From assembly GCA_048886185.1 (NCBI GenBank), contig JBHLKY010000004.1:90001-122000 (forward strand): a DNA stretch of 32,000 nt, in the 5' to 3' direction. Numbering within the stretch: position 1 is the stretch's first letter; every line of letters starts with the position of its first letter. Positions 4,002-26,796 of this stretch are shown here, in pieces. The translations under genes were made by a program, and so were the position numbers. Source of the stretch: Candidatus Hermodarchaeota archaeon. Lineage in GTDB: Archaea; Asgardarchaeota; Heimdallarchaeia; Hodarchaeales; Hodarchaeaceae. The notes beneath the pieces are model-generated. The model made no database searches. It was not told the DNA's origin and saw nothing but the letters and a program-made list of their open reading frames with translations.

Positions 4002-4796
4002 ATGGTCTCGTTTGATGAACTAGAGACATTCCTAGCTTTCTTTGTGTTTCAAATGAAAGGAGGGAAACCGTTAATCGAGAAAGAATTCCGGAGTACAAAA
4101 GAAGCTAAATCCTTTCCTACTACTATGATATATTCACTCTTAAATTCTGCCTATGATATCTCACAAGGATTAGAGGAAGAGTCCATTGAAGAAGGTCAAT
4201 TGTTTCATGTAGATTTTGCTTCAATGCGTATCGCAGGTATTATTAGACCAGAAGGGCTTCTTTTTTCACTTATCTCCTCTTTATCAGCCTCAATACTTGA
4301 CATTGAATTCAAATTACGGACACTTATGACTTTATTCTTTGGAAATTTTTCCGATAAATTATCTAAGAAAACAATACGATTATCAGGTGTTGAGAAAGAG
4401 ATGTTTGACGAATCAATTCAGACAGTTATGACTGGGGAATCACGATACATGAGTGAATCCATGAAAAGAGAAGTAGAAGAGCACATAATTGCATGGATTA
4501 TTAGTGAAGATTCAATTAGGGGAGCATGTGTGTCTTCTTTTACTGGCGCTATTATTGTGAATAAGATGGATATAGAAATTCTCCCTTCTGCTGTACGTGC
4601 TATTCGTGGAGCATTTGCAGCACAATTAGAGAAACCAAGGTTCTTTCTCACAGTATCTGGTGATTCCAATATTTTTGTATATATTATTGGAGAAGGCTTG
4701 TTGTTACTTGTAGATTCAGATCCAAAATCTTCACCTGCCAATACTATTGGTTTGGTTGAGTGTATAGTTGAAGAACTAAGGAATCTAATTCTATAG
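4002..4796 (+). CDS. Putative longin-like + roadblock/LC7 two-domain protein
   Basis: N-terminus FLAFFVFQMKGGKPLIEKEF resembles the longin/AP-sigma beta1-beta2 opening, and the domain ends with the longin-like LRTLMTLFFGNF...FDESIQTVM helices. C-terminal ~115 aa follow the roadblock helix-beta-beta-helix-beta-beta-beta-helix pattern (IRGACVSSFTGAII...NIFVYIIGEGLLLLVDSD...IVEELRNLI). Starts 4 nt after the GTPase stop. Confidence 0.65.
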   Translation: MVSFDELETFLAFFVFQMKGGKPLIEKEFRSTKEAKSFPTTMIYSLLNSAYDISQGLEEESIEEGQLFHVDFASMRIAGIIRPEGLLFSLISSLSASILDIEFKLRTLMTLFFGNFSDKLSKKTIRLSGVEKEMFDESIQTVMTGESRYMSESMKREVEEHIIAWIISEDSIRGACVSSFTGAIIVNKMDIEILPSAVRAIRGAFAAQLEKPRFFLTVSGDSNIFVYIIGEGLLLLVDSDPKSSPANTIGLVECIVEELRNLIL

Positions 4797-4830
4797 GGAT
4801 ACTTAATTCAATCTTGTTGAAGGCTTAATT

Positions 4831-6948
4831 TTGTTGCCTCAGAAAAGTTCAATCTATTTCCCTATTATTTGGCACGCTCATCAACCTGCAGGGAACTTTC
4901 CATATATTATCGAGGAAGCCTATCAAAAATCCTATCTCCCTCTACTTCAAACAATTTCAAAATATCCAGCCATCAAATCAAGTTTACATATTTCTGGGTC
5001 TCTTCTGATGTGGATTCAAGAAAATCATCCAAGATATTTAGAGCAAATAGCAACACTTTACAGTCGAAAACAAATCGAAATTATTGGTGGAGGTTTTTTT
5101 GAGCCTATTTTGGCTATAATCCCTGATAGAGATAAAGAAAAACAAATTCAATTAATGTTCGATTGGTGGGTTCAAAATTACAATATTGTACCTCAGGGAA
5201 TTTGGCTAGCTGAAAGAGTATGGGTTCCAAACTTACCTCCAATTCTGGTTAAAATGGGAGTAAATTTCACTTTTATTGATGATAATCTTTTCCGTATGGC
5301 TGGATATTCCGAAAAACAGACATTCTATGCGTATGTGACTGAGGATCAAGGAAAAACACTTACAGTGTTTCCAATTAATGAAAGAATAAGATATTTAGTA
5401 CCATGGAAAAATCCAACCGAGACAATTAAATATTTAATGAAAGGTCGTGATGAATATCATGAGAAAATTATTGTTATGATTTCTGATATGGAAAAGATGG
5501 GAGTTTGGCCTGCTGGTGATCGCACAACTCATGAGATTTGTTATGTTAAAGGTTACAATGGAATACCTTGGATGCATGAGTTTTTTGAAGCAATTTCAGC
5601 TAATTCATGGATAAAGCCAACCTTAATTAGTGATTATCTAAAAAAACATAATCCGAGGGGTCTTCTTTATTTGCCCACAAGCAGTTATGATAAGATGGCT
5701 ACATGGTCACTACCCACTCCGCTTAGGAAACGACTAGAAAATTTACAAAAAAAAATTACTCAAAAAGAAATTGAATCTGAATTAGCTAAGGATATTTTAA
5801 CCTTTACTTCTGGATCTATCTGGCAGAATTTCTTGGTTAAATATTCTCAAGCAAATATCATGCACAAAAGAATGCTAATATGCCGTAAAAAAATAGAGGA
5901 AACAGAGGCCGACCTTCCACATCTACCTTCAGAGAAGTTTGAGAAAATTTGGAAAGAATTACTAAGTTCACAGTCTAATGATGTATATTGGCACGGATTA
6001 TTTGGTGGGATCTATTACCGATTCCTTCGACATTCAACCCACAAACATCTGATACAGGCTGAGTTTCTTTTGGACAAACTCCGAGAGGAAGAAGGTCTGA
6101 AAGAGTTTTCTGGAAAAATCATTGATGTTTTACTTGATGGTCAACCTGATGGAATCTTAGAAAACAAAAAAGTTTCGTGTTATATTTCCTCGCTTATTGG
6201 AGGATCAATTTTTTCACTTAACCTTAAGGAATGTGGATATAATTTTCTTAATGTATTAACTCGTCAAAAGGAATCTTATCATACTAAGAAGATGCACAGT
6301 GTCCATGATCGTTTTGAAAAATGGTCCTTTCAAGATCACTTTGTCCCTATCATGATTTCTGAAGATTCTTTTAAAGAAGATCATTATCTTGATCTTGGAG
6401 ACTTTGCTAACAATCGTTACGAAATCTCTCAAGATACAGAATGGAGTATGATTTTGAAACGTCAGGGAGAAATTAAGTTTGAAGGGAAACTAATTCATAC
6501 GAAAATAAGCAAAAAATATCAATTACGATCAAATACACTTCAAATTGCATATAATATAGATTTTTCAGAAGCCATAAAACCACAAACTCTTTTTTTCTCG
6601 CCTGAAATCAATCTTATTGGAGCATCCTTTCCATATAAAACCACAGGAATCATAAATGACTTGCCTTTTGATTTAGCTAATTCTTGTACCTTCACTAATT
6701 GTAAAACAATCGAAATTAGGGATTTAAATGAACAGGAATGTGTTTCAATTGTTGTTAATTTTGATATAGCTTGTGATGGTGTAGTATTTCCCTTATATTC
6801 CATCCCGAAAAGCGAAATCGGATTTGAGGAGATCTATCAAGGTACTTCAATTTTTCCTAAAATCAAGATCTCTGGGAAAAAACTAGAGTGTGAGATTGAA
6901 CTAATTTTGAAGTCGATTAACAAAGATAATGAAATGAACACATTCTAG
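4831..6948 (+). CDS. GH57 4-alpha-glucanotransferase / alpha-amylase
   Basis: GH57 motifs HAHQP, EIIGGGFFEPILAII, catalytic Glu in GIWLAERVW, acid/base Asp in SDMEKMGVWP, and QSNDVYWHGLFGGIY. The 705-aa length fits the Thermococcales-type glucanotransferase. Confidence 0.9.
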   Translation: MLPQKSSIYFPIIWHAHQPAGNFPYIIEEAYQKSYLPLLQTISKYPAIKSSLHISGSLLMWIQENHPRYLEQIATLYSRKQIEIIGGGFFEPILAIIPDRDKEKQIQLMFDWWVQNYNIVPQGIWLAERVWVPNLPPILVKMGVNFTFIDDNLFRMAGYSEKQTFYAYVTEDQGKTLTVFPINERIRYLVPWKNPTETIKYLMKGRDEYHEKIIVMISDMEKMGVWPAGDRTTHEICYVKGYNGIPWMHEFFEAISANSWIKPTLISDYLKKHNPRGLLYLPTSSYDKMATWSLPTPLRKRLENLQKKITQKEIESELAKDILTFTSGSIWQNFLVKYSQANIMHKRMLICRKKIEETEADLPHLPSEKFEKIWKELLSSQSNDVYWHGLFGGIYYRFLRHSTHKHLIQAEFLLDKLREEEGLKEFSGKIIDVLLDGQPDGILENKKVSCYISSLIGGSIFSLNLKECGYNFLNVLTRQKESYHTKKMHSVHDRFEKWSFQDHFVPIMISEDSFKEDHYLDLGDFANNRYEISQDTEWSMILKRQGEIKFEGKLIHTKISKKYQLRSNTLQIAYNIDFSEAIKPQTLFFSPEINLIGASFPYKTTGIINDLPFDLANSCTFTNCKTIEIRDLNEQECVSIVVNFDIACDGVVFPLYSIPKSEIGFEEIYQGTSIFPKIKISGKKLECEIELILKSINKDNEMNTF

Positions 6949-6994
6949 CAGAATTTTACTGCTTAAGGAAAGTTGGATCTAGAAATTATTTATC

Positions 6995-7153
6995 TTAAGA
7001 GAGTAAGAAGAGGAAAAAAATTATTCCAAATAAAAGAATAAGACCTGATCCATATGTAAAAGTGATATCCAAGACTGTTCTTAATTTCTTAATCATGGAT
7101 TCCATATTATCTTCAAATAGATTAAGGATATTAGCATTTAAAAACCCTTCCAT
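6995..7153 (-). CDS. Candidate 52-aa small protein with C-terminal TM helix (not in ORF track)
   Basis: Manual translation: MEGFLNANILNLFEDNMESMIKKLRTVLDITFTYGSGLILLFGIIFFLFLLS*. A TATAAAAA element lies 29 nt upstream (7183-7190, minus strand). No family recognised. Confidence 0.3.
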   Translation of the reverse strand: MEGFLNANILNLFEDNMESMIKKLRTVLDITFTYGSGLILLFGIIFFLFLLS

Positions 7154-7315
7154 CCTCTACCATGTAAAATGGAATAATGATCTTTTTATAGAGTACAATT
7201 AAGGTCAATAGGAAAAAGTTCGTTTTTTTTATGCAAAATTCATAATGAAAGAAATGAAGAATTCATTTTTCTTTTTGAGAAATTACCTTTGAGGAGTTAT
7301 TATGCTGCAGTGAAA

Positions 7316-8986
7316 TTATTGTAGATATTTCCTCCATAATCTTACTTTTTTCCTTCTACGTCTTAAGATATTATTAACAATTAAAACTCCAATCATTATG
7401 ATGAGGTCAAAACCAAAAGTACTTCTTGATGTTGGATTTTGAAGATTTGGGAATCCGATTTTAAGGTTTTGATTTCTCAAATCCAAACTCCCTAGATTAA
7501 CTGTTAGGTTCTTTGGCCGCCAAAATTTGTCAAATATGTGTTCTCCGAAGTATATTGGATTATCATCTAAATATATAGTATAAGATTCAGTTACTTGTCT
7601 ATTTGTACGAAAATAATACCACGTTTGCCAAGTGACAACAAGATTTTTCTCTTTATATGTAATATCTGGAATTGAGCTGACAATAGGATTGAATCGAAAT
7701 CGATCTACATGATAAATTCGATATGAAGTCTCTTCTGTGTTTGGAAAATTCATTTCCCAAACGATATGACCAGTATCGTTTACTTCAACTATTCTGGCAC
7801 CTAAATTTGTGTTTGGGTGGGAATTCATTCCAAATGTGCCTAAATGATTCCCATTTGGTAATCTATCTGCATCACATATAACAGCACTATAATATTCCCG
7901 TGGAGCGACCCATGACCATGATTCATTAGCAGTCATTGTCATTTCATCAATAGTAATTTCAAGCATCCTATTATGACCACTAAAACTTCCGATTTGATTA
8001 TGAAAATTATTATCAAAAATGATGAAGGTGTTATCATCAACTTTCTCTAAAGCATGGGGATGGTAGAAAAGGGATTCCTTTTGATTCCCATCTAGATCAA
8101 AGAGAGAAAAATTTCCATACTCTCCTAGTCCCCAGATTATTTTCCCAGTTTTATGATCAATCTTGTAAAAAGTGTTTGGATTTCGTGGGTTATAGTATAT
8201 TACATCTTCCTCTGCATCAAAAAAAATAGAATTTGAATGCGTAATATCAGCAATACCACTATCCATATCTTGGAAAGGACACCAATAGTTAGGTTTTATG
8301 AAGGAATGTGTATCTAATGACCAAACAAGTTCTCCTGATCTAGTATATTCATTGATTGTGTCATACATGTATTCTTGGCCATCGATCTCAATTCTATATT
8401 TCAAAAAAGCGAAAAAAGTATCATTATTTGGATTCCATTCAAAGTCATGATGTCCAAAAAAATCTAAAATCTGAACATCATTATTTTGTACATTCCATAA
8501 AACAGCGTTTGCTTCTTTATTACCTATTTTTTTAGCACATAAAACGGTATCTGAGGTAATGAATTTAGCTGGGTGCATATAATCTTTCATTTCAGCAATA
8601 ATATCCCCCTCTGTGCTAGTAATAAGCAGTGTTCTCTTTTTTTCCTTGTCTAAATTTATTTCAGTAAGTTCAAATAGATTGTATCCTTTGAAATAATCTC
8701 CTAAAATAGTAATGTTCATTATTGCATCATCTAGACTTGAGACTCTTGATTGACTGTTACGATAATTAAAGGTATTCTTGAGTAATATTTCCTTTGAATT
8801 AGCCATTTTTTTCTTTAATTGGGATTGTTGGAAGTCAATGTCGATCTTATTTATATTAAGTGAGTTTATGCTATAAAATGTAAGATTTGTAGTACAACTG
8901 GATATAATTAATGAAATAATTGAGATTAAGATTAAACCTCTGAAAAAACAATAATGTTTTTCTCTGCAGTGCAATTCTAATCCCAA
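7316..8986 (-). CDS. Aryl-sulfate sulfotransferase (ASST) family beta-propeller, secreted and C-terminally anchored
   Basis: ASST-type catalytic motifs GHHDFEW, DITHSNSI, YNPRN, FYHPHAL, plus DADRLPNGN and YR. N-terminal hydrophobic signal-like segment, and C-terminal TFGF + TM + RRRRKK. Start codon uncertain (TTG). Confidence 0.85.
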   Translation of the reverse strand: MGLELHCREKHYCFFRGLILISIISLIISSCTTNLTFYSINSLNINKIDIDFQQSQLKKKMANSKEILLKNTFNYRNSQSRVSSLDDAIMNITILGDYFKGYNLFELTEINLDKEKKRTLLITSTEGDIIAEMKDYMHPAKFITSDTVLCAKKIGNKEANAVLWNVQNNDVQILDFFGHHDFEWNPNNDTFFAFLKYRIEIDGQEYMYDTINEYTRSGELVWSLDTHSFIKPNYWCPFQDMDSGIADITHSNSIFFDAEEDVIYYNPRNPNTFYKIDHKTGKIIWGLGEYGNFSLFDLDGNQKESLFYHPHALEKVDDNTFIIFDNNFHNQIGSFSGHNRMLEITIDEMTMTANESWSWVAPREYYSAVICDADRLPNGNHLGTFGMNSHPNTNLGARIVEVNDTGHIVWEMNFPNTEETSYRIYHVDRFRFNPIVSSIPDITYKEKNLVVTWQTWYYFRTNRQVTESYTIYLDDNPIYFGEHIFDKFWRPKNLTVNLGSLDLRNQNLKIGFPNLQNPTSRSTFGFDLIIMIGVLIVNNILRRRRKKVRLWRKYLQ

Positions 8987-18661: not shown

Positions 18662-19120
18662 TTGATAATAATGAGAGCTAGTAAGCAAGAAGACATCTCC
18701 AAAGTCATTGAATTAATGAATATTTGCTTTAAAGATGAAATAGACCGTGGAATGGAGTTACCAACTCCTTCTCTCATAACTTCAAAGATTGAACAGGAAA
18801 AAGTTATTCTTCTAGTGGACGAGGAAGATAAAAAACTTATTGCTTTTTCTTTGATAAAAGCAGAAACGACTGAAAACCCAGCACAGATACAGATGTTAGG
18901 AGTAGATCCAAGTTACCAACGTAATGGGATTGGGACACGATTAGTTGAAGCCTGTTTAGATCTAGCACGAGAAAAAGACTGGAAGAAGGTAAAAATATTT
19001 GTGAGACCCTGGAATGTACCCATGAGAAAAATCATTGGGCATTTTGAATTCATTCCTGAAGGATATTTAAGGAAAGAATTCTTGAGCGAAGATTTAATCG
19101 TATATTCTTTCTTTCGGTGA
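18662..19120 (+). CDS. GNAT-family N-acetyltransferase
   Basis: Acetyl-CoA motif A LGVDPSYQRNGIGTRLVEAC and C-terminal N..MRK...HFEF. Start may be ATG18671. Confidence 0.9.
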   Translation: MIIMRASKQEDISKVIELMNICFKDEIDRGMELPTPSLITSKIEQEKVILLVDEEDKKLIAFSLIKAETTENPAQIQMLGVDPSYQRNGIGTRLVEACLDLAREKDWKKVKIFVRPWNVPMRKIIGHFEFIPEGYLRKEFLSEDLIVYSFFR

Positions 19121-20106
19121 AGAGTTCTAAACATATGCACTTCTCCACAAAAAAACCAAACATGGATTTCACCTTCAAAGCATTCATTATAGTAGTGCTG
19201 TGGGCAACTCCTCCCTTAGTATCAAAATTATGGGTTGGGTCAAAAGGAGTGTTTCCAGGTTTGTTTTTTGGTTTTCTTCGATATAGCATCGGATCATTCG
19301 TGTTGTTACTGGTTATAGTGTTTTATAAGAAATTCAAGAACTTTCAACTACTTTTAAAGGATCATTTTAAGCCTATTTTATTTTGTGCTCTCTGGTTAGT
19401 CTTAATGATAATTGGACAAAATTTTTCTGTTCTTTTTATCCTTGGAGGGAGTTCTTCTGTGCTTCTGAATTTTAATCCAGTTCTTATTTATCTATTTGCT
19501 CCTCTTTTATTCGTAGATGAACAATATACGCGCAAGAAAACCTTAGGGTTTTTTATCTCTTTTATTGGTATAGGATTAGTCTTCTTGGCTTCATTAGAGA
19601 TTAATTCTACGATATCAACAGAGTTTATTATTGGCTACGGTTTAGGATTCCTTTCTGGAATAGCTTGGGCTGGATATTCTATCTCATTAAAACGATTTTT
19701 CCAAGAAGGTAATTCTCAAGAAGTAACTGCTCTTAATCTTCTTGTTGCTGCGACTTTCCTTCTGATTTTTTCGATTATAACCGAACCTACTCCAACATCC
19801 GAAAGTTATACCCTTGAAAGTATTTGGGGAATCATTGTGATAGGTGTTGGGGCCGCAGCAATTGCTTTTACTCTCTATTTACAACTAGTTCAAAAATATG
19901 GAGCAACTCAAGCTGGAAACATACAATTTCTTATCCCTCTTGTCTCTTTATTGTTTGCATTCATTTTCTTGGGTGAATTCTCTCTCTATACTCTTATAGG
20001 AGGAATTTTGTGTGCAGTGGGAGTAGCGATGGTTAATTATGAAAGAATTGATAATAACAGAACAGTGGTTACCTCCTTAATTGAAAAATCTATTTGTGTT
20101 GAGTAA
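19117..20106 (+). CDS. DMT/EamA-family transporter
   Basis: About 10 TM in two repeats. LWATPP, FLRYSIG, LLNFNPVL, GIAWAGYSI, IQFLIPLVSLLFAFIFLGE. GTGA overlap with the GNAT stop. Confidence 0.9.
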   Translation: MKSSKHMHFSTKKPNMDFTFKAFIIVVLWATPPLVSKLWVGSKGVFPGLFFGFLRYSIGSFVLLLVIVFYKKFKNFQLLLKDHFKPILFCALWLVLMIIGQNFSVLFILGGSSSVLLNFNPVLIYLFAPLLFVDEQYTRKKTLGFFISFIGIGLVFLASLEINSTISTEFIIGYGLGFLSGIAWAGYSISLKRFFQEGNSQEVTALNLLVAATFLLIFSIITEPTPTSESYTLESIWGIIVIGVGAAAIAFTLYLQLVQKYGATQAGNIQFLIPLVSLLFAFIFLGEFSLYTLIGGILCAVGVAMVNYERIDNNRTVVTSLIEKSICVE

Positions 20107-20198
20107 AAGTTTACCAATTGTTAAAACTTAATAAAATAAACCTTTTGGTGCATCTTATAGAATTAATCTCCTTTTTAATCAAAGGATGCCCAAATTAA

Positions 20199-21479
20199 TT
20201 GACAGAAAAACCAACCAAGGGAATAGGACCGAAGCTTAGCCTTTTTTCTGCAACAATAGTACATTGTTCTGTGGAGATACCTTTTTTTATTTTTCCTGTA
20301 GTTTTATTACTTGTTGGGAAAGATCTTTTTCCAGTCGAATCTGCACTGACCTGGATCGGCCTTGGTGCCTTAGGGACTGTGGGAACTCTCGCGGCTGGCC
20401 TCCCCTCACCATTTTTTGGGAAGCTTGCCGATAAATATCGTCGGAGTACTTTAATGTTTGTTAGTTTGATATTAGCTGCCTCAGGGTCTTTGGGTGTTGG
20501 TTTGTTTGGAGAATCTTTTGTCGTTATGTTCGTATGTGTTATTTTAATGGGTCTTGGTCTTGCTTTATACCATCCTGCTGGATTATCATGGATTTCAACT
20601 ATATTCGAGGATCCAAAAACCCATGCTTTTTCAAACAAATATGTCCGTATCTTAGCACTTCATGGAATAGGAGGTAGCACAGGAGCTTCTATTGGCCCTT
20701 TATCGGTTTATTTCCTAATTAATACAACTGGATGGCGTTCTATCTATCTGTATTGGTCCTTTCCTCTAATCCTCCTAGCAGTCTTATTCTGGATTCTAAT
20801 TGGAAGGTTTGAACAATCTGTTGATTGTTCTGAATTCTCTCCCTCTGAGGAAAACATTCCTATTAAAAAAGAAAATAATAAAATCATTTCAAATTGGAGT
20901 CAATATTCAGTAATCATATTGATCTTTAGTTTTATAACGGTAATGTCATTAACTAGAGGTATGGTGAACTTCATTCTCTCGCCCTTCCTTTCTGAGGTGA
21001 AAAATATCGAAATTGCAACTGCTGCTCTCTTTATTGGTCTTTCAACCTTGATAGGATCAACAGCTCAGATTTTAGGTGGTTTTTTCGGAGATAAATATGG
21101 AGAACGATTAATGCTTCAAATTAGTGCTTTTCTCCAAATATTTGCACTCGTTGGGATTTTTATTATTTTTGTTAAAGAGGTAATTTTTCTTTTATATGTC
21201 CTTCTGGGAATGATTAACGCATTATTTTGGCCCTCAACTAATAGTTTAGTAGCTAAAAATTCAAGAACAGAAAGGGGAAAAGCATTTGGGTGGGTAATGT
21301 TAGTTGCAAATCTGATTGGTGCTCTTGGGCCATCTATTGATGGCTTTTTGCGTGGAATTGATCCAAATCAATATTTGCTAATTTTCGGATTTTCCATTGT
21401 TTTTTCATTATGTGGATTTATTTTTCTAATTTTCTTAAATACCTCATCAACAAAAAATACAACCAAAAACTTCATTTAG
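20199..21479 (+). CDS. MFS transporter
   Basis: 12-TM pattern. Motif A-like GKLADKYRRS and GFFGDKYGER, plus GLGLALYHPAG (Fsr-like). Confidence 0.9.
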   Translation: MTEKPTKGIGPKLSLFSATIVHCSVEIPFFIFPVVLLLVGKDLFPVESALTWIGLGALGTVGTLAAGLPSPFFGKLADKYRRSTLMFVSLILAASGSLGVGLFGESFVVMFVCVILMGLGLALYHPAGLSWISTIFEDPKTHAFSNKYVRILALHGIGGSTGASIGPLSVYFLINTTGWRSIYLYWSFPLILLAVLFWILIGRFEQSVDCSEFSPSEENIPIKKENNKIISNWSQYSVIILIFSFITVMSLTRGMVNFILSPFLSEVKNIEIATAALFIGLSTLIGSTAQILGGFFGDKYGERLMLQISAFLQIFALVGIFIIFVKEVIFLLYVLLGMINALFWPSTNSLVAKNSRTERGKAFGWVMLVANLIGALGPSIDGFLRGIDPNQYLLIFGFSIVFSLCGFIFLIFLNTSSTKNTTKNFI

Positions 21480-21502
21480 TCACAAAGTGGTAAATTATAG
21501 AA

Positions 21503-22156
21503 ATGGCTACAATACTGATGACATTAGCAGAAACAAAAGCACCAAATAAATATGAGTGGTCAATAAATCTCTTGACTTTAGGACGCCGTGGAAGAATCTA
21601 CGACTATCTAAAGCAGAAATATCTTCAGGAGAGTCAATTATTACTTGATGCAGGATGCGGTACTGGCCGGTTTATGGAGGTTGCAGATACCTCTTGGATA
21701 ACCTCGATTGGTATTGATGTTTCTGAGGGTATGCTTCAAGAAGCACAGAAGAGATTTATAGGCAAAAAACATGATCACTCTCTTATTCAAGCATCGATAA
21801 CTTCTTTACCCGTGAAATCTGAAGTTTTTGACGTAGTTATTTGCAATTTGGTTTTATCAGAATTAAATTATCAACAAGTGCAGGATTCAATTAATGAATT
21901 TATATTTTGTCTGAAAAAAGGTGGGCTTCTTCTTATTGTTACTGAATCAGTTCCTAAAAGTAAGTTCAAACGTTCAATCATCAATATTGCAAGAGTTCCT
22001 GCTTTCATGATAGCTTCACTAATTAGTAAAACTCCAAAACATCCGATTCACGATATAATGACACCTCTCTCACGTTGGGGCTCTATTATTGATCAAAAAA
22101 CTTACCTTGGTGGATATCTCACATTGTTTGCTATAAAGAAAAATGATAACAAGTAA
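21503..22156 (+). CDS. Class I SAM-dependent methyltransferase, resembling corrinoid-protein-associated methyltransferases (CpaM-like)
   Basis: Motif I LLDAGCGTG, GIDVSEGML, FDVVICNLVLSEL, LKKGGLLLI. The N-terminus ILMTLAETKAPNKYEWSINLLTLGR matches my recollection of the CpaM family, which is unverified. Confidence 0.8.
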   Translation: MATILMTLAETKAPNKYEWSINLLTLGRRGRIYDYLKQKYLQESQLLLDAGCGTGRFMEVADTSWITSIGIDVSEGMLQEAQKRFIGKKHDHSLIQASITSLPVKSEVFDVVICNLVLSELNYQQVQDSINEFIFCLKKGGLLLIVTESVPKSKFKRSIINIARVPAFMIASLISKTPKHPIHDIMTPLSRWGSIIDQKTYLGGYLTLFAIKKNDNK

Positions 22157-22189
22157 GAGTATAAATGCTGAAAAAATCCTCAAAGTAGA

Positions 22190-22208
22190 CTTATAAGTTT
22201 ATATATAA
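22190..22208 (+). promoter_or_regulatory. Putative TATA box upstream of the HgcA-like gene
   Basis: CTTATAAGTTTATATATAA in the 89-nt gap, about 40 nt before the start codon. Confidence 0.4.
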
Positions 22209-22245
22209 TCTAAATTTTTAACATGTTTATCGGAAAAGTCTGATC

Positions 22246-23229
22246 GTGGTCATGATGAATATATCAGACGTAATTAAAGAAGTAATTTCGATTGTGATTG
22301 CAGGACTCGCATTCCCAGGTCTAAATTTGAAGGTAAGACCTGGACTTTATCCAAATGGAAATCCTGGTCCTTCTGAAGAATCTCCTGTGTTGGTAAGTTC
22401 AAACTATTTTGTGACAAAAAAAAGAGTAGTTTCTTACTTAAAAAATCAGAATATTGCTTCATGGTTACTAATTGTTGACACCGAGGGTGTAAATGTTTGG
22501 TGTTCTGCTGCAGGTGGTCATTTCACTGCTGAGAAGATCCTCGCCCAAATAGAAGACACAGATCTGTCAGAGGTAATCAATCATCGTCAATTGATACTTC
22601 CACAGCTATCTGCTGCTGGAGTTGATCATACTCTACTAAAAAAAGTTGGATGGGAAGTCCATTTTGGTCCTGTAGATATCGAAGATTTGGGGACGTACCT
22701 AAAGAATAATCATATAAAAACAGTTGATATGTCTCTAATCAAATTCAATCTAAAAAGACGTATAGAGAATACTATCTCTCATAATTTCTTTATTTCTTTG
22801 ATTTTAATTCCATTAATATTAGGAATTGCAGTTTTAGCCCAACCACTGGGCTTTCTCCTACAACCTTGGTCTCGGTGGTTAATAAACAATATCTTTTTTC
22901 TCTTGACTTATATTTGGTTCTTTGGGTTATTATTTGGTCTTCTTTATCCTTATCTCCCATTTAATTCTGGATTTTTCAAAGGAATTATCTTATCGGCATT
23001 TCTGACTCCATTTTCTATCTTGATTTTTATGACAAGTCCTATTTTGGAATCTGCTTTAGGACTTGGTACTATCCTCCTCTATAATGTTATTATTAGTACA
23101 GATTTTGATGGATTCACACCTCTTTGGGGAACTGACTTTATCATCAAAGATTATATCCTTCTAGCTGGAGCAGCTGGATTAATTATTATAGGATTAATAA
23201 TTACACCATTTATTATTGGAGTTTTGTAG
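22246..23229 (+). CDS. HgcA-like corrinoid protein (CdhD/E-like cobalamin-binding domain + 5 TM)
   Basis: VRPGLY..GNP..ESPVLVSSNY, LLIVDTEGVNVWCSAAGGHF (cap helix), HRQLILPQLSAAG, GWEVHFGPV, then five TM segments with DFDGFTP before the last. Confidence 0.9.
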   Translation: MVMMNISDVIKEVISIVIAGLAFPGLNLKVRPGLYPNGNPGPSEESPVLVSSNYFVTKKRVVSYLKNQNIASWLLIVDTEGVNVWCSAAGGHFTAEKILAQIEDTDLSEVINHRQLILPQLSAAGVDHTLLKKVGWEVHFGPVDIEDLGTYLKNNHIKTVDMSLIKFNLKRRIENTISHNFFISLILIPLILGIAVLAQPLGFLLQPWSRWLINNIFFLLTYIWFFGLLFGLLYPYLPFNSGFFKGIILSAFLTPFSILIFMTSPILESALGLGTILLYNVIISTDFDGFTPLWGTDFIIKDYILLAGAAGLIIIGLIITPFIIGVL

Positions 23230-23232
23230 ATC

Positions 23233-23451
23233 ATGGTAATTCATTTTAATCAAAAACGATGTATTGGATGTCACTTCTGTATTCAAGTGTGTCCTCGTGG
23301 ATGTTTCGAATTTAATGCTGAAAAAAATAAAGCTGATGTTATTAATCCCATTTTTTGCTTGAAATGTCGAGCATGTGAACTTAATTGTGAAGGAAATGCA
23401 TTAAAGATAGAGAAATTCATTTTTCATAATTTTCTACAGCAATTAATATAA
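23233..23451 (+). CDS. 2x[4Fe-4S] ferredoxin, HgcB-like
   Basis: CIGCHFCIQVCP and CLKCRACELNC cluster motifs. Starts 3 nt after the HgcA-like stop. No Cys after the second cluster motif. Confidence 0.9.
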   Translation: MVIHFNQKRCIGCHFCIQVCPRGCFEFNAEKNKADVINPIFCLKCRACELNCEGNALKIEKFIFHNFLQQLI

Positions 23452-23549
23452 TTTTAACCATATAAAGATGAACCTATTTTAGGGAGTCGATCTCAGAGTA
23501 TGATTAGAAGTAGCATTTATAGGATGTGTGAAAGAAGAAATCATGGGAT

Positions 23550-24101
23550 TTAAGAGTTAATTATACCTTGTCGGATTAGAATTTCTTTCGTTAGATGGAA
23601 AAAGGCTTCACGTACATTTTTATCGCGATAAGCTGAAGTCTCAAGGTACTTAATTGGCTTAAAATCTGGAATTATATCATCTTCAAGATAACTATAATCT
23701 ATACTTATCATTTCTTCAAGGTCAGATTTATTACCAATTAAAATCTTTGGAATGTACTCTCCAAGTCGTTTGTCGATTTGTTCCTTCCATTCGTATAGCT
23801 CTTCAAGTGTCTCGGGTCTTGTGAGATCGAAAACCAAAAGAGCCCCATTAGCTTTCCTGAAAAAAATCTCCCTTAAAGTTTGGAAACGTTTCTGTCCTGC
23901 AACATCAAAGATAACCAGATTAACAAGAGTTCCATCAACTTCAATTCTACGATTGGTGGGATCTAAGCCCACTGTCAACAAATAGTTGAACTCGAATTTG
24001 TCCTCTACATAACGACGTACAATTGAAGTTTTACCTACAGCACCCGCTCCACAAATAATAATTTTAAGATGAAATTTTGCCTTCTGATCGTCATAGTTCA
24101 T
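23550..24101 (-). CDS. Rab-like small GTPase (second paralog)
   Basis: G1 GAGAVGKTS, G2 YLLTVGLD, G3 FDVAGQKRF, LVFDLT, G4 NKSD, G5 ETSAY. No C-terminal Cys motif. Confidence 0.95.
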   Translation of the reverse strand: MNYDDQKAKFHLKIIICGAGAVGKTSIVRRYVEDKFEFNYLLTVGLDPTNRRIEVDGTLVNLVIFDVAGQKRFQTLREIFFRKANGALLVFDLTRPETLEELYEWKEQIDKRLGEYIPKILIGNKSDLEEMISIDYSYLEDDIIPDFKPIKYLETSAYRDKNVREAFFHLTKEILIRQGIINS

Positions 24102-24355
24102 TTGGTTTCACTTGAAATTGTCTTTTAAGAAGAAAAAGAAGTGATAATTTTAAAATATACTCATTATGAATTATAACTGAATCTTAAACTCATAACAATA
24201 GCCGATCGATAATCAGTAAAAATCTATTGTAAGTTAAACTTTTTAACGATAGGCATTTAACATCATTAAAAAACTGTTGTTTTTTCCTATAGATAAGATT
24301 CCCTTTCTTGATTACTATAAAATAGATCAACTTTTTAAAAACGGAGTTTAGGCAA

Positions 24356-26227
24356 GTGACATCAATTATAACAGAACTGAGTCGTATTCCATGGAAAGAA
24401 TACCTTAAAAGTCAATTATACAAGATATTTGGTTTCTTAATCATTGCTCTTTTGATTATTGGCGTGATGATAGTTTCTCAAGACATCGATCTTTCAACTG
24501 CTTCGATAAACGATCCAAAATATATTATCGCAGTTCTTCTTTCGAGTCTTTGCTTTTTTTTAGTACTCATTGGTTTTTCCAAGATTATACTCTTCGATAT
24601 GGCATCTGAATTTGGTTTACGCGATGAGGAATCTAATCAGATAGTATACAATACTCGATTTTTTCTTTTTTCAGCTTTAGCTTTATCATTTTGTTGTGCT
24701 ATTTATTTATTACTCGATGTTTTCCTTTACCAAGAAAATCCAGCCTTAAATTTAAAATCAACTTATCTTGAGCTACTTCCTGTATTAGCTATGGAATGGG
24801 TGCTTGTTGCTTCTGAAGCAACTATTCCTAATCTCACAGAGAAGATAGGAACAGGAAAAGAATTTTATCAAACGGCTCGGAACATATATTTTGCCTTTTT
24901 TTTCCTAATTATCATTGCATTCTCATTATTAGTTTTCTTATCCATTTTGACAAGCTTTGCACGTAATAGAGTAGTTTCAAAATTTAAAAAAGAAGAAGAA
25001 ATAAACGAAGAGGAGGAGAATAAGCGTCTTTATAAGATAATAGCTTGGTTTGGGATCCCAATATTCAGCTTATTTCTATCCACTTTTTTGGCTTCTTCTA
25101 TGGGACCGATTATTGCAATTATCCTTATTGGACTATTCATCTGGTGGATATACCAATTAGTAAAGTTTATCTTTCTAGTTTTAATAAAAGGACTTAAAAT
25201 TACTGCATTTATAACAAGTGTTAATTTTTTATTGATTATTCCATTGATTGGCATATTATATCTACTACCAGTAGTATCTTGGACATTATGGGATATCTTC
25301 TTTGAAAGTAAGACTGATATTTGGGGAGTGTTTGTAGGACGTGCTTTTGATGTCATCAACATAGTTCAACTCGACTTTGTTTTTATTACTATGATTGCTA
25401 CTATTATTGTTGGATTTGCAGAGGGATTTGCAATCGTTGCTATACTCACAGCGATTTCTAGAGGCGCAGAAGTCGCTCGAACAGGACGAGTTCTAACTCG
25501 TTCCCCTCCAAAAGTAGCTGTGATTATGAAATATTTGATTATGTTTTCAGCATGGCTAGGATTATCTTGGAATAGTTTACGTGGTATTCTTGAAGTTCTA
25601 AAAGAAGAGCTCCAGCTTACGCTACCACAGTTCTTAGAAGATTTTCTTTCAGTTCCCTCAATAGTCTACTTAATTTATGAAGAACTAGTGATCCCATTGT
25701 CAGAATGGCTTGAGGTTCTATGGCCAACATTTAAATACATACCATTTCTACTCTTACCACTTTATTTCATTATTGCTGCTGCCTTTAAATTTCTTTCAGT
25801 TACTCTCGTTACCCCACGGGTTAAAGAACGTCTTTCTGTATTTTTTCTTCTTATCTCAACTGCTTTTGTATTGATCATAACAAATATTCTAGGTGACATC
25901 TATGAGCTACATGAAGTAAATCCACTTCTTTATGCCGATGCGCCTCTCTTAAGCCAAGGTTTTGTCGATATTCTCTATCGTGCTGTTGTTTATTTTGAGT
26001 ATGTTGAATCAGTAGCATTCTACATTGGATTTATTTTTGGGTTTGTTTGGGTTATTCGAAAAATTATAAAAAGTCGAAGTAAAAGCAGTTTAGAGACATT
26101 TCAACCAGAAGAAAGACGAATCCCTGAATCACCTAATTTATCTCTGACACCAGATGTAAAGGGATCTGATGAGGATATTCAGCAACCAGATTCCAATCCT
26201 CTAGCTCAAAATGATCTGAATGGGTGA
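24356..26227 (+). CDS. Uncharacterised polytopic membrane protein (about 13-14 TM)
   Basis: 623-aa ORF, GTG start with GGAG upstream. Many hydrophobic segments, an acidic loop KKEEEINEEEENKR, and a disordered-looking C-tail. No family recognised. Confidence 0.8.
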   Translation: MTSIITELSRIPWKEYLKSQLYKIFGFLIIALLIIGVMIVSQDIDLSTASINDPKYIIAVLLSSLCFFLVLIGFSKIILFDMASEFGLRDEESNQIVYNTRFFLFSALALSFCCAIYLLLDVFLYQENPALNLKSTYLELLPVLAMEWVLVASEATIPNLTEKIGTGKEFYQTARNIYFAFFFLIIIAFSLLVFLSILTSFARNRVVSKFKKEEEINEEEENKRLYKIIAWFGIPIFSLFLSTFLASSMGPIIAIILIGLFIWWIYQLVKFIFLVLIKGLKITAFITSVNFLLIIPLIGILYLLPVVSWTLWDIFFESKTDIWGVFVGRAFDVINIVQLDFVFITMIATIIVGFAEGFAIVAILTAISRGAEVARTGRVLTRSPPKVAVIMKYLIMFSAWLGLSWNSLRGILEVLKEELQLTLPQFLEDFLSVPSIVYLIYEELVIPLSEWLEVLWPTFKYIPFLLLPLYFIIAAAFKFLSVTLVTPRVKERLSVFFLLISTAFVLIITNILGDIYELHEVNPLLYADAPLLSQGFVDILYRAVVYFEYVESVAFYIGFIFGFVWVIRKIIKSRSKSSLETFQPEERRIPESPNLSLTPDVKGSDEDIQQPDSNPLAQNDLNG

Positions 26228-26262
26228 TATTTGTCCCCAAAAGTTTTTCAGGTAGCCTAGGA

Positions 26263-26796
26263 ATGCAATTCTTAATCGGAATAACTGGTCTTATGGGAAG
26301 TGGAAAATCTACAGCTGCAGATCATATTGTAAAAAAGTATGGATTTACACGAATGAGGCTTTCTGGAAAGATGCGAGAAATTGGTATTGAATTGGGTTTA
26401 GAAATCACTCGGGATTTTCTTCAAAGCTGTGGGAAGTTTTTCCGAGAATTTGATGACGATATCTGGGTGAGATATCTTGTTAGAGAAATTCAAAAAACCT
26501 CAGCTTCAATAGTAATCGATGACATAAGAAGAATGAATGAAGTGGTTTATCTGAAACCTCTTGGCTTTAAATTCATCAGAATTCAATCGTCTTCTGAAAA
26601 ACGTAGGACAAGAATTGAAGTTCGGGGGAAAAAAAGGATCTCAAACTTGGATTGGAAAAGATGGTCTGACCATTTAACTGAAACTCAAGTCCTTCAGCTT
26701 CCTGTTGATTATATTATCGAAAATGATGGGTCACTAGAAGAGTTAAGAATAAAAATAGATGCTGTTATGGAAAAGGTTTTAGGACAAGATAATTAA
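26263..26796 (+). CDS. P-loop NMP-kinase-fold protein (dephospho-CoA-kinase-like / dNMP-kinase-like; substrate unknown)
   Basis: LIGITGLMGSGKST, IVIDDIRRMNE, HLTE, DYIIENDGSLEEL. ATG26263 is preferred over GTG26224. Confidence 0.8.
   Translation: MQFLIGITGLMGSGKSTAADHIVKKYGFTRMRLSGKMREIGIELGLEITRDFLQSCGKFFREFDDDIWVRYLVREIQKTSASIVIDDIRRMNEVVYLKPLGFKFIRIQSSSEKRRTRIEVRGKKRISNLDWKRWSDHLTETQVLQLPVDYIIENDGSLEELRIKIDAVMEKVLGQDN

Follow-up and report, generated by a model that had tools for sequence, protein, structure and literature searches.

In the present study, we analysed three genes in a 32,000-nucleotide stretch of DNA, hereafter the window, from a Candidatus Hermodarchaeota archaeon (assembly GCA_048886185.1, contig JBHLKY010000004.1, positions 90,001 to 122,000 of the forward strand). 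At positions 21503-23451 of the window, adjacent genes, all on the plus strand, encode a class I S-adenosylmethionine (SAM)-dependent methyltransferase (MT), a corrinoid membrane protein that resembles the mercury methylation protein HgcA (A), and a 2x[4Fe-4S] ferredoxin that resembles HgcB (B), as an earlier note made from the letters of this DNA had described. We found that the three genes are coupled across genomes, and that they are a divergent, fully split version of the gene set catalogued by NCBIfam as CpaM and the HgcAB-like protein. The features of the locus are as follows.

21503-22156, plus strand: gene for the CpaM-like class I SAM-dependent methyltransferase (MT), 217 aa (Pfam, NCBIfam, AlphaFold2 model)
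21641-21667, plus strand: motif I of MT, LLDAGCGTG (read from the sequence)
22157-22254, plus strand: 98-nt spacer that separates the MT gene from the HgcA-like gene, with the TATA-like TTATATATAATCTA at 22199-22212, a candidate internal archaeal promoter
22255-23229, plus strand: gene for the HgcA-like corrinoid membrane protein (A), 324 aa (PF03599, NCBIfam, AlphaFold2 model, tree)
~22255-22750, plus strand: corrinoid-binding domain of the HgcA-like protein
22486-22527, plus strand: cap motif GVNVWCSAAGGHFT of the HgcA-like protein, with the Cys83 codon at 22501-22503
~22750-23223, plus strand: five-helix membrane domain of the HgcA-like protein
23233-23451, plus strand: gene for the HgcB-like 2x[4Fe-4S] ferredoxin (B), 72 aa (Pfam Fer4 families)
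23260-23292 and 23356-23388, plus strand: cluster motifs CX2CX2CX3C of the ferredoxin (read from the sequence)

The open reading frame (ORF) of the HgcA-like protein as called extends from 22246 to 23229 (327 aa from a GTG at 22246); the ATG at 22255, which gives 324 aa, is the start in the orthologues and in the database copy P0001. Counted from this start, the gap between MT and A is 98 nt. A and B are two ORFs separated by the stop codon and a gap of 3 nt, and are split likewise in all of the orthologues. The MT gene starts only 23 nt after the stop of an upstream MFS gene (21479). The spacer between MT and A measures 77-98 nt in close relatives, and from -3 to +1 nt (overlaps) in the Thorarchaeota version. 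An Rfam scan of positions 21000-24400 (E <= 1) gave no match, and thus no riboswitch or known RNA was found in the spacers. The genome that contains the window is 4.84 Mb in size and 96% complete. The nearest database proteins, which are 56-78% identical, are from Candidatus Hodarchaeales, Hodarchaeota, Heimdallarchaeota or Promethearchaeota; the host is therefore an Asgard archaeon of the Hodarchaeales/Heimdall group, as had been presumed. The window DNA was found again in DNA runs of sediment metagenomes, possibly the source of the assembly itself.

The MT protein belongs to Pfam Methyltransf_11/25 (E 3e-18). Its best NCBIfam model is NF043040, the 'corrinoid protein-associated methyltransferase' CpaM, for which NCBIfam gives NF043039, the HgcAB-like fusion protein, as the partner. 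The match covers model positions 3-215 of 216 with 134 bits (cut-off 180), 80 bits ahead of the runner-up (54 bits); UbiE/MenG scores 52 bits. Thus, the protein groups with CpaM and not with the UbiE/MenG-type enzymes, the grouping that the earlier note had held to count against its reading. All ten residues that are invariant in CpaM-type proteins (M6, E10, L48, G51, G53, G55, D72, M77, S119 and E148) are kept; these were defined in an alignment of 30 sequences, stand-alone and fused forms together, and the SAM motif is among them, as is the M..LE helix at the N-terminus. The AlphaFold2 (AF2) model (pLDDT 88.9) has a Rossmann methyltransferase fold. Its neighbours in a fold search were only generic small-molecule methyltransferases (Coq5, PmtA, ChlM, TleD and CmoA, TM-score 0.6-0.75), which gave no clue to the substrate. 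A sequence search of the PDB retrieved only CFeSP and generic methyltransferases, with neither HgcA nor CpaM among the solved structures. A full-text literature search on CpaM, HgcAB-like and fused HgcAB proteins found no mention of a methyltransferase partner; the hits to the name CpaM were acronyms for other things.

Over its N-terminal 150 residues, the HgcA-like protein matches PF03599 (CdhD), in the corrinoid domain at the C-terminal end of that model, with an E value of 6e-20, and the large subunit of the corrinoid iron-sulfur protein (CFeSP) in the PDB with 2e-15. The AF2 model, built from an input alignment of 40 rows (pLDDT 92.8, pTM 0.85), shows five long helices (residues 166-195, 199-233, 239-257, 263-287 and 293-323) after a Rossmann-like domain. 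Hydropathy concurs, in agreement with the five transmembrane helices that had been read from the sequence. The best PDB match of the model found by Foldseek is the integrative HgcAB model 9a0b_A (28% identity, full length), followed by CFeSP large subunits with a root-mean-square deviation of 2.0-2.4 A over ~130 residues and 31-32% identity. In the cap, NVWCSAAGGHF, the Cys is kept and the Lys of N(V/I)WCA(A/G)GK is absent. The cap residues G78, N80, W82 and Cys83 are invariant across the HgcA-like family, and the Lys column has K in 52/52 true HgcA proteins and in 0/62 proteins of the sister clade. With the NCBIfam models, the protein scores 198 bits for NF043039 (cut-off 285) and 164 bits for NF040863, HgcA (cut-off 275); when reading continues through the stop of A into the ferredoxin, the NF043039 score rises to 259 bits, still below 285. 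The corrinoid-binding domain is homologous to that of the CFeSP large subunit (AcsC/CdhE). CFeSP is soluble, receives its methyl group from methyl-tetrahydrofolate or methyl-pterin via MeTr, and hands it on to the ACS Ni site; unlike the window protein, it has neither a membrane domain nor a Cys ligand.

The eight cluster cysteines of the ferredoxin lie in CIGCHFCIQVCP and CLKCRACELNCE, the second being followed by E, not P. The best NCBIfam match is to the C-terminal part of NF043039 (52 bits), and NF040864, HgcB, scores 49 bits (cut-off 99). Past the second cluster the protein, which terminates in ...FHNFLQQLI, has no Cys, and it lacks a C-terminal Cys pair.

Association of the three genes across genomes

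NF043039 was searched against 201 Asgard genomes and matched in 80, and 21 HgcA-like loci plus controls were cut out. In 20/20 complete Asgard loci, the HgcA-like gene either was fused with a CpaM-like MT or had one directly upstream; the 21st locus (L031) ends at a contig edge and stands outside this count. In a pattern scan of genome_contigs, which yielded 589 relatives, the best 80 of the 589 were examined, and the CpaM-like MT was fused or immediately upstream in 80/80. For four of these 80 loci the MT was established by inspection, the ORF calling being artefactual in GC-rich genomes, and locus L047, which has masked bases, was excluded from the conclusions. The 80 loci are from Asgard archaea, Bathyarchaeia, Chloroflexota (including Dehalococcoidia), Acidobacteria, Bacteroidetes, Victivallaceae and Thermoanaerobaculales. 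Of four true hgcA loci, all with the WCAAGKG cap, none (0/4) has a CpaM-like neighbour. Thus, MT, A and B are genomically coupled, and the coupling is obligate in the loci examined (~100 complete loci); the synteny of MT with HgcA-like genes elsewhere, on which the earlier note had made its reading depend, is observed throughout.

The three parts occur in all four architectures: three separate genes, an MT-A fusion followed by a separate B, MT followed by an A-B fusion (the canonical NCBIfam pair), and a single MT-A-B chain. The form with three separate genes, as in the window, is found in Hodarchaeales relatives and in a second look-alike group in Thorarchaeota. Single-chain MT-A-B proteins have 596 aa (L021:1983-3773, G052) or 655 aa (L022:1252-3219, G134:C4), and the Thorarchaeota genome G134 holds three types of module, i.e. 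MT-A-B, MT-A with separate B, and the split trio. MT is fused to A in 60 of the 97 paired loci. With MT fused or adjacent in every complete locus and every permutation of the fusion present, the proposal that the three genes are one functional unit is well supported. The pairwise identities of the MT and A parts co-vary over the 97 paired loci (r = 0.92; r = 0.69 for pairs of <45% identity). Shared ancestry adds to this co-variation, which is thus consistent with co-inheritance and does not prove co-evolution. A complex prediction with the alignments of MT and the corrinoid domain gave a score of 0.00, which is not evidence either way.

The orthologous trios, of 56-78% identity, hold their order and spacing while the neighbouring genes vary. 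In close relatives, insertions of TrmO, DUF362 and YjeF_N genes occur around the trio and never within it, and only MT, A and B are common to the Hodarchaeales and Thorarchaeota contexts. In the window, the trio is preceded by genes for GNAT, EamA transporter and MFS transporter proteins (18662-21479) and followed by those for a Ras-like GTPase (minus strand), a multi-pass membrane protein of 622-623 aa with no Pfam match, and an AAA_18/dNMP-kinase-like protein (23550-26796). The block from GNAT to AAA_18 is syntenic in Hodarchaeales/Heimdall relatives (L017, L018, L019, L046 and L048), not beyond. We considered the EamA, MFS, Ras-GTPase and 622-623-aa membrane protein genes as a clue to function and rejected them, because they are common to close relatives only and are not in the Thorarchaeota version.

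Two side observations concern the supply of electrons. Downstream of the Thorarchaeota split modules, on the same strand, is a gene for an HdrA-like protein of ~890 aa with two FAD/NAD(P) regions and a 4Fe-4S dicluster, which is kept in seven loci (L067 at 4776-7447, L029, L039, L040, L111, L115 and L122) and absent from the window; it may be the electron-input partner of those modules. Among the Chloroflexota loci (L050-L121), most MT-HgcA-like fusions (39 of the 80 loci), unlike the archaeal ones, have no adjoining ferredoxin gene; thus, their reductant must come from elsewhere.

Relationship to HgcAB and to a second module of the same genome

A tree of 117 sequences was constructed from the corrinoid and membrane parts (IQ-TREE quick search, LG+C20 PMSF). 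True HgcA forms a clade of 54 rows (SH-aLRT 99), 52 of which have the WC[AS][AG]GK cap. A second group of 62 rows (SH-aLRT 93) contains every MT-associated form. The window protein lies outside true HgcA, in a clade of eight rows (SH-aLRT 100), and the Thorarchaeota split form, with the cap WCGSRGGH, is another clade (support 100). Its sister relation to the Hodarchaeales clade is not resolved in the quick tree, nor does this tree resolve whether the split form is a fission product of an MT-A or of an A-B fusion. The window clade is outside the core A-B fusion clade, to which it has ~30-33% identity. In a library of representatives at 50% identity, the window protein scores 391 bits against its own clade and 161 bits against the next protein; this drop indicates a well-separated subfamily. 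Furthermore, 23 columns discriminate true HgcA from the sister group, 21 of which are defined by a residue conserved in HgcA (present in at least 80% of the 52 true HgcA proteins and rare in the sister clade), and the window protein matches 0/21 of them. Together with the NF040863 score of 164 bits against a cut-off of 275, this agrees with the view that the corrinoid protein is a relative of HgcA and not HgcA itself.

The gene set most similar to the window module is CpaM (NF043040) with the HgcAB-like fusion (NF043039). It has the same three domains in the same order and the same MT partnership, its models are the best NCBIfam models of the window proteins, and it shares with them the large clade that stands apart from true HgcA; the window has a gene of its own for the ferredoxin, which in the fusion is a C-terminal domain. 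The 'fused HgcAB' paralogues were reportedly described by Podar in 2015, Gilmour in 2018 and Lin in 2023. The module is therefore not the unrecognised system that had been supposed, as CpaM and the HgcAB-like protein are already named partners in NCBIfam. Particular to this member of the catalogued family are the three separate genes, the scores below cut-off, its own clade and the ferredoxin without a tail. HgcA and HgcB (NF040863/NF040864), which were reportedly identified as the mercury methylase by Parks in 2013, have in common with the window pair the two-gene layout, the five transmembrane helices, the cap-helix Cys and SAM as the likely source of methyl. In contrast, the window proteins lack the cap Lys, the 21 signature residues and the equivalents of HgcB C73, C94 and C95, and have a dedicated MT.

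The same genome has a second module on contig C17 (~29.8-31.7 kb, minus strand; L001:1405-3348). It consists of a 553-aa CpaM-HgcA-like fusion, with the cap INVWCAAGGGHFS, followed by an HgcB-like ferredoxin of 89 aa with a Cys-rich tail (GCGC... plus a terminal Cys). The parts are the same as those of the window module (31% identity in the corrinoid/membrane part and 27% in MT), whereas MT and the corrinoid protein are separate in the window; the C17 type is common in Heimdall, Thor and Chloroflexota. GTPase genes adjoin both modules of this genome: an Arf-family gene with a C-terminal extension (315 aa) is convergent just downstream of the C17 module, and likewise a Ras-family gene stands beside the window module.

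The most useful new observation of this study is the contrast between the ferredoxin tails of the two paralogous modules in one genome. In the orthologous split modules from genome_contigs, no post-cluster Cys was found in 8/8 ferredoxins. In contrast, the ferredoxins that accompany MT-A fusions have at least three post-cluster Cys residues in 18/21 cases and a C-terminal CC in 16/21, and the C17 ferredoxin is of this cysteine-tailed class. In HgcB, C73, C94 and C95 are needed for mercury methylation (PMC11588087). The contrast suggests that the paralogous modules handle different acceptors.

Possible function of the module

In the genome that contains the window, nine other genes for the B12-binding domain PF02310 scored above the cut-off and a tenth just below, which indicates that corrinoid is used in this cell. 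The only two PF03599 matches are the window HgcA-like protein and the C17 fusion; thus, there is no Wood-Ljungdahl CFeSP (CdhD/E) in this genome. In other Asgard genomes (L035:1455-3254, L036 and L037), we noticed CFeSP-type proteins of 590-600 aa with a duplicated C-terminal domain; they combine an FeS domain at the N-terminus with a full PF03599 match and a tandem C-terminal repeat that resembles the corrinoid domain.

We consider it fairly probable that the trio is one membrane-bound, SAM-dependent corrinoid methyl-transfer system, a split member of the CpaM and HgcAB-like family that is the sister group of HgcAB. Purified and reduced HgcAB forms methyl-Co(III) from SAM, its cobalt is ligated by the Cys sulfur, and HgcB belongs to the dicluster ferredoxins (PMC11588087). 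By homology with HgcA, and given the obligate genomic coupling, the 72-aa ferredoxin would supply electrons of low potential, bringing the cobalamin of the HgcA-like protein to the Co(I) state. The CpaM-like MT would then present the methyl group of SAM to Co(I), giving methyl-Co(III) with Cys83 as the axial ligand, and the methyl group would be transferred to an acceptor bound to the five-helix membrane domain or within it. This acceptor is unlikely to be Hg(II), since 0/21 of the HgcA-specific residues are present and the ferredoxin is without the mercury-handling cysteines of HgcB; the target other than mercury that had been proposed is thus the better reading.

Several points weigh against such a system. 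All three window proteins are below the curated cut-offs of NCBIfam (180, 285 and 99 bits). CobS, CbiB and CbiC were not found by Pfam in the 96%-complete genome, so that the cofactor would have to come from outside and the organism probably salvages cobamides. A single transcript for all three genes is not established, given the TATA-like element in the 98-nt spacer; with the gap of 23 nt between the MFS and MT genes, the transcripts may be MFS-MT plus A-B instead of one unit. In the literature, 'fused HgcAB' is treated only as paralogues that root HgcA trees, and the fused HgcAB-like protein of Pyrococcus furiosus, the only member tested, did not methylate mercury (PMC10083202, PMC7438021). 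More seriously, true HgcAB takes the methyl group of SAM without a separate methyltransferase (PMC11588087), and thus CpaM may do something other than load cobalt. Of the complete cycle that the earlier note had proposed, the coupling of the genes as a unit has held, and the loading of the methyl group by the SAM enzyme is the weakest link; CpaM's role could lie instead in reductive re-activation or in a reaction with the product.

One possible explanation of this kind, which we regard as unlikely, is that the corrinoid protein and the ferredoxin carry out reductive chemistry, e.g. dehalogenation of halomethanes or some other reduction by Co(I), and that MT only re-activates oxidised Co(II) reductively with SAM, in the manner of the activation domain of methionine synthase (MetH), or methylates the product. 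MetH-type reductive methylation uses ferredoxin, SAM and a corrinoid, the same ingredients as those of the trio, and the HdrA-like FAD/Fe-S oxidoreductase after the Thorarchaeota split modules points to a supply of strong reductant. However, the fold of the MetH activation domain differs from that of class I methyltransferases. A 2026 preprint (10.64898/2026.04.26.720869) reports that heterologously expressed HgcAB dechlorinates CCl4 besides methylating mercury, which keeps a reductive role in play, but it covers true HgcAB and not the window clade, and is silent on fused forms. Furthermore, the stoichiometric fusion of MT in 60 of the 97 paired loci is more easily reconciled with a catalytic partner than with a repair factor needed only now and then.

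An alternative, which seems to us quite improbable, is that MT methylates a separate small-molecule or lipid substrate and shares a pathway with the corrinoid protein, no methyl group being passed between them. The fold neighbours of MT are indeed ordinary small-molecule methyltransferases, and an MFS transporter gene lies close upstream of it in the window. However, in close relatives a TrmO gene on the opposite strand sits between the MFS gene and MT, covalent fusions of the MT-A and MT-A-B types predominate in the family, and no third pathway gene is conserved between the Hodarchaeales and Thorarchaeota contexts.

It is very unlikely that the module is a genuine mercury methylase, i.e. a divergent HgcAB with an accessory methyltransferase. 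This would account for the corrinoid domain, the cap-helix Cys, the five transmembrane helices, the dicluster ferredoxin gene 3 nt downstream and the structural match to 9a0b, and SAM is the methyl donor of HgcAB (PMC11588087). However, the cap is WCSAAGGH instead of WCA(A/G)GK, the signature residues and the cysteine equivalents of HgcB are absent, the protein falls outside the HgcA clade with a score far from the NF040863 cut-off, and mercury was not methylated by the one protein of the sister clade that has been tested (PMC10083202). That the adjacency is fortuitous, or that the genes are decaying remnants, is scarcely credible: the scores under the NCBIfam cut-offs might suggest it, but all three reading frames are intact and retain the conserved cofactor residues, the trios keep their order and spacing amid changing neighbours, and the association of MT with A in all complete loci examined contradicts it.

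Returning to the membrane-bound methyl-transfer system, we tentatively suggest a joint reading, which we consider possible although more doubtful than the system itself. The paralogous modules of Asgard archaea, of which there are up to three per genome, might be specialised by acceptor, the Cys-tailed class for soft metal(loid)s and the tail-less split class for a non-metal, membrane-associated substrate. The SAM methyltransferase might then be the ancestral methyl-loading device of the HgcA superfamily, later dropped in true HgcA. If so, this would give an independent reason why SAM is the 'unexpected' donor in mercury methylation.

The value of the present finding is limited by the fact that the family is already catalogued, and the comparison does not identify the acceptor. 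In the split form, however, each component is a separate small protein, which is convenient for reconstitution, and the tail-less window module is a natural contrast to its Cys-tailed C17 paralogue in searches for substrates. The wider question on which the module bears is the natural function of the HgcA superfamily. We know of no benefit of mercury methylation to the cell, and not until 2024 was SAM identified as its methyl donor. A dedicated SAM methyltransferase invariably accompanies the sister clade of HgcA, and on comparative grounds this speaks for SAM-to-cobalt methyl transfer as an ancient, general trait of these membrane corrinoid proteins.

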